The notes below the pieces were generated by a model that was not told the origin of the DNA, made no database searches, and saw only the letters and a program-made list of their open reading frames with translations. A DNA stretch of 64,000 nucleotides from Escherichia coli (lineage in GTDB: Bacteria > Pseudomonadota > Gammaproteobacteria > Enterobacterales > Enterobacteriaceae), in assembly GCF_048403405.1 (NCBI RefSeq), contig NZ_CP183129.1, one strand, 5' to 3'. Below, one piece after another: positions 1,214-22,038 of the stretch (position 1 is its first letter; each line of letters starts with the position of its first letter). Both the position numbers and the translations under genes were made by a program.

Positions 1214-1692
1214 TCTGGTCATTCGTAAAAGCATACCGTAAACAGTTGATTATCATGGCGGTGCTTGCTGTTCTGGTCATATCAGGAGTTGTTGCCTGGA
1301 ATGTGCACGGCAGTCGTCAGTACGACGCTGGGTATGCACAGGCGAAAGAAGACCGCAAAACCGAAGATGAGAGAGTTCGTCAGCACTACGAACAGGAGAA
1401 ATCGATCAATGAACGTGAAGCGCAGCAGAGGATCGACCAGGCGCGCAATGATGCTCTTGATGCTGCCGCTCGCGCTGGCCGGTTGCAGCAACAGCTCGTT
1501 GCCATCCGTGAGCAGCTCAGGCACTATAACGCCATTGTCGGCGCTGGGTCGTCAGCCGCAGACACCGGAGTTTTGCTTGCCGACGTGTTCAGCAAATCTC
1601 TCGAGAGAAATAGACAACTGGCAGAGTATGCTGACCGGGCAGCCGAAGCCGGAAGAGTCTGCGAAAAACAGTACGACACCCTGACCAGATAG
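1210..1692 (+). CDS. Rz-like inner-membrane spanin (i-spanin)
   Basis: ATG at 1210 overlaps the endolysin stop (ATGA). N-terminal TM ([18 protein letters not shown]) followed by a charged, Q/R/E-rich coiled-coil-like region. Position is right after the endolysin. Confidence 0.65.
1409..1684 (+). CDS. Rz1-like outer-membrane spanin lipoprotein, embedded in the +1 frame of Rz
   Basis: Internal ATG at 1409 in track ORF 1265..1684, with AGGAG 11 nt upstream. Signal peptide [25 protein letters not shown] followed by Cys (lipobox LAGC). Pro/Ser-rich mature part. Fully nested inside Rz. Confidence 0.5.
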   Translation: MNVKRSRGSTRRAMMLLMLPLALAGCSNSSLPSVSSSGTITPLSALGRQPQTPEFCLPTCSANLSREIDNWQSMLTGQPKPEESAKNSTTP

Positions 1693-1844
1693 CATGGCAT
1701 TTTTCATGGTACTGATTTCCGGTGACGGTATATAAAACGGTACGAGAAAAATTTATCTTTGGAAAAATGTTATCACTCAATTGGTTATGTGTGTCGTAAA
1801 TAATTGAGTGGGAATGATTTTGATCCCTGCACTATGAATGAACA

Positions 1845-1873
1845 AAACCCTCTGTTACTACAGAGGGTTTTTT
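1845..1873. terminator. bidirectional rho-independent terminator (downstream of yfgI on the minus strand, also closes plus-strand transcription)
   Basis: CCCTCTG-ttacta-CAGAGGG stem-loop, followed by T6 on the plus strand and T4G on the minus strand. A second hairpin CTTCAAG-n9-CTTGAAG lies at about 1876-1898. Confidence 0.55.
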
Positions 1874-1911
1874 ATCTTCAAGAATTATAGGCTTGAAGTT
1901 ACTTACATCGA

Positions 1912-2451
1912 TTAATTAAACCAGCTGTCCGATTTGTTCTCTTCTGCTTTGCCCACGCTTTTCATCAGATCTCGACCGCCCTCAGTCATATTCCTGTTTG
2001 CGTCAGCTTCAGATTGCACCACATCGGTTTGCGCAGCTTTGTGCTTCAGTTCCTGATCGATAAATTCGTTTTCTCGCTTAACGCGGGCTTCTTCTTTCGC
2101 CAGCGCCAGTTTTTGTTTCTGAATCTCTAAGCTGCGTAGCTCATCTTGATAACTTTGATCGCGTTTTTTGTCCGCAGAGGCTTCGGCGTCCAGTTTATCC
2201 TGACGAGCTTTCTTATTTGCCGCTGCCGTTGCCGCTCTTTTGTTAGCGGCGGCCTGGGCGTTTGCGCGACGTTGCTTCTCTTGCTGGATTTCCCTGTTGC
2301 GCTCCGCGACCCATTCGTCATGCTGCCTTTGCTCTTCATTTTTACCTTGCTGTTCCGCTTCTGCGACAGCAGAGAGTTGATCCTGCAATGATGAGGCGAT
2401 AGCCGGATAGCTTAAGGAGGCTAAGATGGCGCAAAGAAAAACTTTCTTCAT
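1912..2451 (-). CDS. yfgI: uncharacterized protein YfgI
   Basis: 179-aa track ORF recognised as E. coli YfgI (signal peptide, K/E/A-rich coiled-coil-like body). Conserved position next to yfgH. Confidence 0.9.
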   Translation of the reverse strand: MKKVFLCAILASLSYPAIASSLQDQLSAVAEAEQQGKNEEQRQHDEWVAERNREIQQEKQRRANAQAAANKRAATAAANKKARQDKLDAEASADKKRDQSYQDELRSLEIQKQKLALAKEEARVKRENEFIDQELKHKAAQTDVVQSEADANRNMTEGGRDLMKSVGKAEENKSDSWFN

Positions 2452-3838: not shown

Positions 3839-6082
3839 ATGAAACTGAATGCAACTTATATAAAAATACGTGATAAATGGTGGGGGCTTCCGCTGTTCCT
3901 GCCTTCTTTAATCTTGCCCATTTTCGCCCACATTAATACTTTCGCGCATATTTCTTCCGGTGAGGTTTTTCTCTTTTATCTGCCTCTGGCTCTGATGATC
4001 AGCATGATGATGTTTTTCAGCTGGGCGGCATTGCCAGGGATCGCCTTAGGGATTTTTGTCCGCAAATATGCAGAGCTGGGTTTTTACGAAACGCTCTCAT
4101 TAACGGCTAATTTTATTATCATTATCATTCTCTGTTGGGGCGGTTACAGGGTCTTTACTCCCCGGCGTAACAACGTTTCACATGGTGATACCCGTTTAAT
4201 TTCCCAGCGTATATTCTGGCAGATTGTGTTTCCTGCAACGCTGTTTCTGATACTTTTCCAGTTTGCTGCGTTTGTAGGATTACTGGCGAGCAGAGAAAAT
4301 CTGGTCGGCGTCATGCCTTTTAATCTCGGGACCTTAATCAATTATCAGGCCTTACTGGTGGGCAATCTGATTGGTGTCCCGCTGTGCTACTTCATCATTC
4401 GTGTAGTGCGAAATCCGTTTTATTTACGTAGTTATTATTCGCAATTAAAACAGCAGGTTGATGTCAAAGTCACCAAAAAAGAGTTCGCACTCTGGCTACT
4501 GGCATTAGGTGCTTTACTGCTGCTGTTATGCATGCCGTTAAATGAAAAAAGCACAATTTTTAGCACCAACTATACCTTGTCATTATTGCTGCCCCTGATG
4601 ATGTGGGGAGCGATGCGCTATGGTTATAAGCTGATTTCGCTGCTCTGGGCGGTCGTGTTGATGATCAGCATCCACAGCTATCAAAATTACATTCCCATTT
4701 ATCCTGGCTATACCACGCAGCTGACCATAACCTCCTCCAGTTATCTGGTATTCTCTTTTATTGTCAATTATATGGCTGTACTGGCAACCCGTCAGAGAGC
4801 GGTTGTCAGACGCATTCAGCGGCTTGCGTATGTGGACCCGGTAGTTCATCTGCCAAATGTTCGCGCCCTGAATCGCGCGTTGCGTGATGCCCCCTGGTCT
4901 GCGCTTTGTTATTTACGCATCCCTGGCATGGAAATGCTGGTTAAGAACTATGGCATCATGCTGCGGATTCAATACAAGCAAAAACTTTCTCACTGGCTGT
5001 CACCCTTGCTGGAACCGGGTGAGGATGTTTATCAGCTTTCGGGTAACGATCTCGCGCTGCGACTGAATACAGAATCGCACCAGGAGCGCATTACCGAACT
5101 GGATAGCCATCTCAAGCAATTTCGTTTCTTTTGGGATGGAATGCCGATGCAACCGCAGATTGGCGTCAGTTACTGCTATGTGCGCTCGCCAGTGAATCAT
5201 ATCTACCTGCTGCTGGGAGAGCTAAATACGGTCGCCGAACTTTCCATCGTGACCAACGCCCCGGAAAATATGCAGCGTCGCGGGGCAATGTATTTGCAAC
5301 GCGAATTGAAAGATAAAGTCGCGATGATGAATCGACTACAGCAGGCGCTGGAACACAACCATTTTTTCCTGATGGCCCAGCCGATTACCGGTATGCGTGG
5401 CGATGTCTACCATGAAATTCTTCTGCGCATGAAAGGTGAGAATGATGAACTGATCAGCCCCGACAGCTTCTTGCCGGTCGCGCACGAATTTGGTTTATCG
5501 TCGAGTATCGACATGTGGGTCATTGAGCATGCGCTGCAATTTATGGCTGAAAACAGAGCGAAGATGCCCGCTCACCGTTTTGCCATTAATCTGTCGCCAA
5601 CCTCGGTATGTCAGGCTCGTTTTCCCGTTGAAGTCAGTCAGCTGCTGGCTAAATATCAAATTGAAGCGTGGCAACTTATTTTTGAAGTCACCGAAAGTAA
5701 TGCTCTGACAAATGTTAAGCAGGCGCAAATCACCTTGCAGCATCTTCAGGAATTAGGCTGCCAGATTGCGATTGATGATTTCGGCACCGGCTACGCCAGC
5801 TATGCGCGGCTTAAAAATGTGAATGCCGATCTGCTTAAAATTGACGGCAGTTTTATCCGCAATATTGTGTCAAATAGTCTGGATTATCAGATAGTGGCGT
5901 CGATTTGCCACCTGGCGCGAATGAAGAAAATGCGGGTAGTGGCAGAGTACGTTGAAAACGAAGAGATCCGCGAGGCGGTGCTCTCTTTGGGGATCGATTA
6001 TATGCAGGGTTATCTTATTGGTAAGCCGCAACCGTTAATTGATACGCTGAATGAAATCGAACCCATTCGCGAAAGTGCCTGA
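3839..6082 (+). CDS. pdeF: cyclic-di-GMP phosphodiesterase PdeF (membrane N-terminal domain, degenerate GGDEF, EAL)
   Basis: 747-aa track ORF recognised as YfgF/PdeF. Multi-TM N-terminus. EAL-domain motifs (DDFGTGYASYARLKNVNADLLKIDGSF). Confidence 0.93.
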   Translation: MKLNATYIKIRDKWWGLPLFLPSLILPIFAHINTFAHISSGEVFLFYLPLALMISMMMFFSWAALPGIALGIFVRKYAELGFYETLSLTANFIIIIILCWGGYRVFTPRRNNVSHGDTRLISQRIFWQIVFPATLFLILFQFAAFVGLLASRENLVGVMPFNLGTLINYQALLVGNLIGVPLCYFIIRVVRNPFYLRSYYSQLKQQVDVKVTKKEFALWLLALGALLLLLCMPLNEKSTIFSTNYTLSLLLPLMMWGAMRYGYKLISLLWAVVLMISIHSYQNYIPIYPGYTTQLTITSSSYLVFSFIVNYMAVLATRQRAVVRRIQRLAYVDPVVHLPNVRALNRALRDAPWSALCYLRIPGMEMLVKNYGIMLRIQYKQKLSHWLSPLLEPGEDVYQLSGNDLALRLNTESHQERITELDSHLKQFRFFWDGMPMQPQIGVSYCYVRSPVNHIYLLLGELNTVAELSIVTNAPENMQRRGAMYLQRELKDKVAMMNRLQQALEHNHFFLMAQPITGMRGDVYHEILLRMKGENDELISPDSFLPVAHEFGLSSSIDMWVIEHALQFMAENRAKMPAHRFAINLSPTSVCQARFPVEVSQLLAKYQIEAWQLIFEVTESNALTNVKQAQITLQHLQELGCQIAIDDFGTGYASYARLKNVNADLLKIDGSFIRNIVSNSLDYQIVASICHLARMKKMRVVAEYVENEEIREAVLSLGIDYMQGYLIGKPQPLIDTLNEIEPIRESA

Positions 6083-6120: not shown

Positions 6121-9733
<3,613 letters not shown>

Positions 9734-21287: not shown

Positions 21288-22038
21288 GTAACCCCCGGAG
21301 AACGCGAAAGAGTTGCTGAACGATACTATTGAGACGCGGATCGTCAGCTTCGCGCAACCAGGTGTTAACCCGATTTCCTGTAGGATCGTCGCTTAAATGG
21401 CGCAGGAGCCGATCGCAAATTTCTCGCCCCTGACGATAGCCCGCCAGCCGCCTCGCTTCTCGCTCAATGGCGATACGCTGTGATGGCGGGATTTGCGGCC
21501 ACAGCGGTTGCATGGTCACTCCGGTGGGATCGCGATAATCCACCGCGTGAATCTTCTGTTGCAGCAAACCGAGCGCCACGGCGAAACCGTGAATGGTGGC
21601 GGCCGGTGTTGGCGGGCAGCCGGGGATCCAAACATCAATGGGGACAATGGTGTCGCTGCCGCCCCAGACGCTGTAGAGATCGTGGAAAATACCGCCGCCG
21701 ACACCGCACGCGCCGTAGGAAACACAGATTTTATGATCGGGGGCAGACTCATACGCCCGAAGTGCAGGCATACGCATCGCCCGGGTGACTGCGCCAGTAA
21801 ATAACAAAATATCGGCGTGACGCGGTGATGAAACAACCTTAATGCCAAAACGTTCTGCGTCGAATACTGGTGTGATGGCGGCAAAAATTTCGATTTCGCA
21901 GGCGTTGCAGCCGCCGCAATCGACGCGATAAACGTAGGCCGAGCGACGGATATCCTGTAACAAATGCTGCTTCATCTTTTGCGTTTGCTCGTCCAGCGTG
22001 ATGGGCTGGCTGACATGTTGCGTAAGCACTGGACTCAT
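21280..22038 (-). CDS. hyfI: hydrogenase-4 small subunit HyfI (NuoB-like)
   Basis: 252-aa track ORF with Cys-containing NuoB-like segments ([16 protein letters not shown]). Confidence 0.93.

Follow-up and report, generated by a model that had tools for sequence, protein, structure and literature searches.

The non-coding gap at positions 1693-1911 of the window (the whole 64-kb stretch of Escherichia coli DNA that was analysed) is almost certainly a right-hand, P-O-B' junction (attR in the lambda nomenclature) formed where an ε15/φV10-like (Uetakevirus) prophage has integrated at the 3' end of guaA. The best explanation of the gap as a whole, to which a probability of about 0.85 is attached, combines this attR with P-arm sites, an incidental palindrome and a host terminator. 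This combination of phage and integration site has already been published, and the junction is a textbook attR, real but ordinary.

Boundaries of the phage and host DNA

A junction between a phage lysis cassette and yfgI had been proposed in a first-pass annotation of the sequence, and this was borne out. The gap is 219 bp long and extends from the stop codon of the Rz-like spanin gene (1690-1692, + strand) to the stop codon of yfgI (1912-1914, - strand). The flanking genes and the two portions of the gap are as follows:

286-594, + strand: phage holin (Phage_holin_3_7; Pfam PF05449, E = 7.5e-27), colinear with the φV10/ε15 holin
584-1213, + strand: GH19 (chitinase class I-like) endolysin (PF00182, E = 1.3e-9), an endolysin in the φV10, ε15 and SPN1S annotation
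1210-1692, + strand: Rz-like spanin (DUF2514; PF10721, E = 1.1e-40), the last phage gene
1409-1684, + strand: embedded Rz1 lipoprotein gene, its position taken from φV10 p30a, with the lipobox LALAGC in an alternative frame
1693-1802, + strand: phage-derived P arm (the attP half of attR), colinear with free phages and absent from prophage-free E. coli
1820-1911, no strand assigned: host guaA-yfgI intergenic DNA (B' side), colinear with prophage-free E. coli and the K-12-like locus
1912-2451, - strand: yfgI (DUF5384), the first host gene (open reading frame; RefSeq annotation of matching loci)

In a megablast of window positions 1600-2000 against 5,426 complete E. coli genomes, 5411 gave a match, the large majority of them solely from approximately position 1803 rightward in DNA annotated as guaA/yfgI. 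The full junction, including the spanin gene, was present in 362 of the 5426. When positions 1-1911 were compared with phage records, free Uetakevirus genomes proved colinear with the window from position 1 to 1819/1820, at which point they end. Identity over 1-1819 is 97.3% for phiv142-3, 89.9% for φV10 and 82.2% for ε15, with EC.W1-9 and ZX5 falling within 89.9-97.3%. The phage-side and host-side homologies overlap by 17 bp. Because the phage homology covers 1-1819 and the host homology begins at approximately 1803, the gap is identified as attR. Colinearity with reference strains, which had been suggested as a check, was confined to 1803-1911 and leaves the proposed junction in place. The Uetakevirus colinearity itself concerns just the last 1.8 kb of the prophage, which is all that the window holds, starting inside the lysis cassette. 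No sigma-70-like promoter was found in 1500-2100.

The att core and the guaA integration site

The limits of the prophage were resolved by a base-level comparison of a K-12-like empty site, the attP of φV10 and of ε15, both prophage ends in the sister lysogen EFF60, and the window. This four-way comparison of att sites yields a single common core:

1803-1819, + strand: 17-bp att core ATTGAGTGGGAATGATT, common to attP, attB, attL and attR
1796-1802, + strand: invariant phage block GTAAATA abutting the core
attB: …GCTACC on the left, core ATTGAGTGGGAATGATT, TGACCC… on the right
attP: …GTAAATA on the left, core ATTGAGTGGGAATGATT, AACAGC… on the right
attL: host DNA on the left, core ATTGAGTGGGAATGATT, phage DNA on the right
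attR (the window): phage DNA on the left, core ATTGAGTGGGAATGATT, host DNA on the right

The core reads ATT GAG TGG GAA TGA TT, which corresponds to the last four guaA codons and stop (I-E-W-E-*) plus TT, such that bases 1803-1817 are the displaced 3' end of the guaA reading frame. Recombination within 1803-1819 joined phage and host DNA, with the phage copy of the core rebuilding the last codons of guaA at attL, next to int and outside the window, and the original guaA tail left behind at attR as an orphan. Excision would pair the attR of the window with that attL. The prophage boundary in the window is fixed to the base, with the end of the phage DNA lying within 1803-1819, and the orphan guaA tail is explained.

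The core occurs once in the 64-kb window, and neither it nor any other junction repeat has a partner there, even with up to two mismatches allowed. As the window begins inside the prophage, attL and int of this prophage lie outside it, and the second core copy, the cognate int and the completeness of the prophage were shown in the sister lysogen EFF60, which is 98.8% identical to the window. It is there, at the int-proximal end, that the matching repeat to be sought at the other end of the prophage was found. Two core copies 37,313 bp apart flank a complete 37.3-kb prophage in this strain, guaA is of full length (1,578 bp), and attL is followed by a gene for a tyrosine integrase with Arm-DNA-bind_3, Phage_int_M and Phage_integrase domains. 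The direct-repeat core has thus been located in attB (K-12-like), attP (φV10, ε15), and attL and attR (EFF60), and a cognate tyrosine integrase in φV10, ε15 and EFF60, in each of which int is approximately 190 bp from the core. The EFF60 prophage also has a tRNA-Arg gene between its terminase and portal genes (21367-21443 of locus L004).

These assignments agree with published work on phage vB_EcoP_ZX5 (ZX5), for which the core was given as 'attgagtgggaatgatt', identical to that of the window, at the 3' end of host guaA and 190 bp upstream of the phage int, with attB, attL and attR verified by PCR and Sanger sequencing (PMC9782041). The same paper attributes an identical attP core to φV10 (Perry et al. 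2009) and to ε15 (Kropinski et al. 2007) (PMC9782041). The phage block GTAAATA shows near-maximal column conservation among relatives and is identical at 7/7 positions to both ε15 and φV10; it may form part of a core-type integrase site. A search for symmetry around the core, as in core-type sites (C/C'), revealed no convincing dyad.

Predicted integrase arm repeats and the IHF-like site of the P arm

Upstream of the core, the phage-derived half of the junction contains the following elements:

1722-1731, + strand: predicted arm-type integrase repeat GTGACGGTAT, at the position equivalent to a protein_bind 'integrase' annotation in ε15
1734-1743, + strand: degenerate second arm-type repeat AAAACGGTAC, 12 bp after the first
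1775-1787, + strand: predicted IHF-like motif ACTCAAttggTTA, with one mismatch to the consensus WATCAANNNNTTR

The copy at 1722-1731 is the only exact match to GTGACGGTAT in the 64-kb window, and in ε15 a second identical copy is found on the P' arm. At the position of the degenerate repeat, divergent relatives carry a full second arm repeat, namely GTGACGGTATcaGTGACGGTAT and GTGACGGTATtgGCGACGGTAT, and a P2-like phage carries GGACGGTAAaactGACGGTAA. Integrase would be expected to bind these GTGACGGTAT-type repeats at 1722-1743 by its N-terminal domain. The region 1693-1745 is 96% identical to ε15, as against 77-88% for the adjacent lysis genes, which indicates constraint on the arm sites.

Related attP and attR sequences were collected from IMG/VR with a pattern that fixed only the arm repeat and the core. 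The set comprises 82 distinct stretches, in nearly all of which the arm repeat GTGACGGTAT lies a fixed 71 nt before the core. The spacing between arm and core is rigid, as 77 of the 82 are exactly 96 nt long, although the conservation of the arm repeat and of the core is itself partly by construction, since the search pattern fixed both.

Other elements resembling GGTAC/ACGGTA were observed at 1706-1712 (ATGGTAC) and at 1665-1676 (AAAACAGTACGA), the latter inside the end of Rz, in addition to those at 1724-1730 and 1736-1742 within the two adjacent arm repeats. AAAACAGTACGA is a 92% direct repeat of AAAACGGTACGA (1734-1745). The upstream elements might be extra arm-type or excisionase sites, or they might be coincidence.

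The IHF-like motif is preceded by an A-tract (GAAAAAT, 1762-1768), and 1775-1787 therefore has both the near-consensus match and the upstream A/T-rich tract of such a site. When up to one mismatch is allowed, WATCAANNNNTTR is matched 0.83 times per kb across the window, but three times within 1771-1809. In the lineage of the window, the single mismatch is an A to C change at the second consensus position. Among the 77 relatives of equal length, TCAA (1777-1780) and TTA (1785-1787) are invariant and the intervening N4 is free. The consensus is retained in the same register with at most one mismatch in all 77, and is perfect in six. In the GenBank record of ε15, likewise, predicted IHF sites that correspond to 1771-1793 and 1791-1813 cover the two arms of an inverted repeat discussed below. 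The earlier suggestion that this repeat might be a protein-binding site is accordingly plausible for its left arm. The balance of these observations tips somewhat in favour of 1775-1787 being the core-proximal IHF site in the P arm. IHF bound there would bend the DNA at approximately 1757-1792 and let the catalytic domains of arm-bound integrase reach the core. The conserved order of attP is two arm repeats, a variable spacer, the IHF-like site, the core and a terminator.

A P2-like prophage at the same site

The same guaA/yfgI site is occupied in E. coli L725 (NZ_CP036202.1, 2776227-2810560) by the prophage of a P2-like myovirus, which encodes a GPO scaffold, a P2-family capsid, a tail sheath and tube, and a regulator of the ogr/Delta type. 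The integrase of this prophage shares 60% identity with that of the φV10 type (E = 9e-174). The attachment region has the same core except for a synonymous ATT-to-ATC change, the block GTAGATA before the core, and a perfect IHF consensus, AATCAAggggTTA, in the same register. GACGGTA arm repeats occur on both arms, two on the P arm and others on the P' arm, together with a terminator after the core. In contrast, the virion and lysis modules are those of a P2-type myovirus rather than of an ε15-type podovirus, and the complementarity of the left arm to the core-side arm is only 4/9, such that there is no inverted repeat. Further genes noted in the L725 prophage are one resembling GTP pyrophosphokinase genes, one for an 'abortive phage resistance protein' and a RelE/ParE toxin-antitoxin pair.

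The synonymous change informs the position of strand exchange. At core position 3 the attL of L725 has the host ATT and its attR has ATC, and strand exchange therefore occurred within 1806-1819. The shared att layout and related integrase further indicate that one integrase/att module serves two unrelated virion types.

The inverted repeat

A perfect inverted repeat with 19 nt between its arms had been noted in the gap. It is exact as described, but lies 2 nt to the left of where it had been placed:

1774-1782, + strand: left arm CACTCAATT, phage DNA
1802-1810, + strand: right arm AATTGAGTG, one phage base and the first eight core bases (guaA codons)

The repeat was also put forward as a candidate prophage boundary, which is correct insofar as its right arm lies at the boundary, with eight of its nine bases inside the core at 1803-1819. 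It is not, however, the junction repeat, which is the 17-bp direct repeat with a partner outside the window. The two arms form part of a longer imperfect palindrome at 1773-1811.

Symmetry of this kind is in itself not exceptional. A perfect inverted repeat of at least 9 bp with a loop of 3-40 nt arose in 5% of 2000 dinucleotide-preserving shuffles of 1693-1911, and the observed repeat alone is for this reason only marginally above chance. Moreover, the sequence of the right arm is fixed by guaA coding, as it consists of one phage base and eight core bases. These two points, along with the decay of the symmetry in distant relatives, would fit a repeat with no function at all, a chance match of A+T-rich phage DNA to guaA codons inherited in close relatives. 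This is nonetheless unlikely, as the block containing the left arm is among the most conserved of the non-coding columns, including the invariant TCAA and TTA, whereas the sequence 10-30 bp upstream of it is highly variable. In addition, a phage of an unrelated type, the P2-like prophage of L725, has the same motif with its register unchanged. This conservation of motif and register, even across phage types, places the left arm under constraint, though not for symmetry.

What the relatives have preserved is the IHF-like motif rather than the palindrome. Complementarity of the left arm to the right arm is 9/9 in 42 of the 77 distinct relatives, 8/9 in 29 and 6/9 in the remaining six. It is likewise 6/9 in ε15 and 4/9 in the P2-like phage that uses the same site. 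At its outer positions the left arm reads CAC, CAG, AAA or AAT, and the palindrome is poorest in the divergent relatives whose IHF consensus is perfect. Because the motif, its register and the arm repeat are conserved while the complementarity between core and arm decays without compensation, the palindrome is probably incidental, a by-product of attP architecture in which the symmetry itself is not the functional unit. The sequence …CTCAAT… occurs in the IHF-like element and …ATTGAG… at the end of guaA; that the element (…ACTCAATT…) is the reverse complement of the core's guaA codons (AATTGAGT…) would be fortuitous.

The location of the right arm within the core, where integrase must bind, invites another interpretation, in which the two arms are a functional pair of core-type integrase sites and the left arm is an accessory inverted copy that aids the assembly or orientation of the intasome. 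The retention of the palindrome at 9/9 or 8/9 in 71 of 77 relatives is consistent with such a pair, as is the good conservation of C1774 and A1775, which lie just outside or at the edge of the IHF consensus. However, in known tyrosine-recombinase cores the core-type sites are separated by an overlap of 6-8 bp, and the 19 bp between the present arms is far above this. The attB site has no left arm, the L725 polymorphism confines strand exchange to 1806-1819, with most of the right arm to the left of it, and the symmetry is absent from ε15 and the P2-like phage despite their related integrases and identical use of the core. Taken together, these features make a pair of core-type sites quite improbable.

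The palindrome could also act at the level of RNA, as a stem-loop in the 3' untranslated region of the lysis operon that stabilizes the mRNA or is a target of RNase III. The + strand RNA of 1770-1814 forms an 11+5 bp stem with a folding energy of -15.4 kcal/mol (z = -5.2), and its position downstream of Rz and upstream of the terminator would suit such a role. The extended hairpin (1773-1811) has mean energies of -16.5 and -12.8 kcal/mol in the two main lineages, with φV10/SPN1S-like groups folding well, but in ε15 and the divergent attP groups no more than -2 to -5 kcal/mol is left of it. One-third of the sequences have C replaced by G at 1776 without compensation, no convincing covariation was seen, and the RNase III sites predicted by the ε15 annotators are placed elsewhere. 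An RNA function is consequently very unlikely. Searches against Rfam returned nothing near threshold, the scores for His_leader (21.5 bits against a gathering threshold of 49) and a Brucella sRNA (13 against 398) being noise.

As to the symmetry within individual lineages, the retention of all nine pairs in 42 of 77 relatives and the good folding of the extended palindrome in φV10/SPN1S-like groups mean that it may have a lineage-specific role. It is conceivable, though improbable, that the P-arm site of these phages evolved to mirror the terminal codons of guaA exactly and that the palindrome at 1773-1811 is functional in its own right. Were this true, two inverted IHF-like sites could compete with integrase for the core and bias integration against excision; alternatively, an RNA or cruciform hairpin would be present in attP and attR and absent from attB and attL. 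Incidental symmetry beside a conserved P-arm site remains the preferred explanation.

Hairpins and transcription termination

On the host side of the core, two adjacent hairpins had been reported, and both are present, the second being weak:

1844-1871, no strand assigned: hairpin 1, AAAACCCTCTGT-TACT-ACAGAGGGTTTT, with a G+C core stem at 1848-1854/1861-1867
1876-1898, no strand assigned: hairpin 2, CTTCAAG (1876-1882) and CTTGAAG (1892-1898), a 7-bp stem downstream of the yfgI stop codon

Hairpin 1 had been read as a bidirectional terminator, and its anatomy fits. It folds strongly on both strands, at -17.8 and -17.9 kcal/mol (z = -5.8 and -6.2), and none of 200 shuffles folded as well. With an A-run on its 5' side and a T-run on its 3' side, it presents a stable G+C-rich hairpin followed by a U-tract from either strand. 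A terminator scan called it on the + strand. For the minus strand the scan made no call, because little T follows the stem once the A/T pairs are included to give its full 12 bp; the G+C stem on that strand is followed by TTTTGTTC. In the empty site the hairpin lies 27 nt after the guaA stop codon, between the convergent guaA and yfgI. It is near-invariant in the sampled E. coli flanks, with three singletons that differ by one base (in loop, stem or T-run), and other genera have a different terminator at this position. It is reasonable, from this structure and placement, to regard hairpin 1 as the bidirectional intrinsic terminator of host guaA/yfgI. A literature search for evidence on a guaA/yfgI terminator gave no match.

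This element resembles other E. coli bidirectional intrinsic terminators in its location between convergent genes and in its G+C-rich 7-bp core stem extended by A/T pairs. It differs from them in its lysogenic setting, where the + side would receive transcription from the lysis operon and guaA would be served by a terminator in the phage P' arm. In the lysogen, hairpin 1 would accordingly stop transcripts that run on from the phage lysis operon rather than from guaA, while also facing yfgI.

Hairpin 2 is probably not a functional element. It folds at only -6.1 and -5.7 kcal/mol (z = -2.4 and -3.4), and no T-run follows it on either strand. Its innermost pair is lost in K-12, the common E. coli variants ACTCACG...CTTGAAG and CCTAAAG...TTTGAAG each have two pairs broken with no compensation, and it is absent from other genera, such that the pairing is not conserved. 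The guaA-yfgI spacer is itself variable among E. coli. An IS200C is inserted there in strain HR5-1, and in some IMG/VR host flanks a REP-like palindrome (…AAAACCCCCAGCTAGGCTGGGGGTTCC…) directly after the terminator replaces the side with hairpin 2 and yfgI.

The terminator in the phage P' arm, AACCCTCTGTTTTTACAGAGGGTTTTT, lies approximately 46 nt after the core (4364-4396 of the φV10 locus L002; approximately 7730-7760 of EFF60 locus L004). It shares 24 of 27 nt with the terminator of E. coli guaA/yfgI, AACCCTCTGTTACTACAGAGGGTTTTT, and is present even in the Salmonella phage ε15. Other attP families at the same core have unrelated terminators at that place. The likeness suggests that the phage captured the host terminator, so that guaA would still be terminated before int after integration. 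The P' arm was also considered as a diverged copy of the whole guaA downstream region, and this was rejected: the stretch from core to terminator scores lower in local alignment than shuffled sequences do on average, and the similarity is limited to the terminator hairpin.

Comparison with known attachment systems

The closest counterparts are the ε15/φV10-like phages, which share the core ATTGAGTGGGAATGATT, the arm repeat GTGACGGTAT and the order lysis cassette, attP, terminator, int. Over positions 1-1819 the identity is 90-97% with the E. coli members and 82% with ε15. From ε15 the window differs in its perfect 9-bp left arm, as against 6/9, and in a few substitutions in the variable spacer, and in nothing of substance.

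A more distant parallel is the att system of lambda. The lambda attP comprises arm-type P sites, the IHF sites H1, H2 and H', and the core C-O-C', with H2 and H' each consisting of an A-tract and a WATCAANNNNTTR-like element. The two systems have in common a tyrosine integrase whose N-terminal domain is of the arm-binding kind, arm-type sites that recur on either arm, a short identity core, and an A-tract with a WATCAANNNNTTR-like element beside the core on the P arm. By analogy, the predicted IHF site at 1775-1787 would act like H2 of lambda attP. There is, however, no sequence relationship between them, and the present core is 17 bp, compared with 15 bp in lambda, and lies inside the 3' end of a protein-coding gene.

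Significance of the guaA site

Different phages share an integration hotspot at the 3' end of guaA: ε15-like phages occupy it in approximately 7% of complete E. coli genomes, and P2-like phages with a related integrase use it as well. The putatively captured terminator might keep the formation of the guaA 3' end native after integration, and the conserved anatomy of attP could guide the use of the integrase as a tool for site-specific integration.
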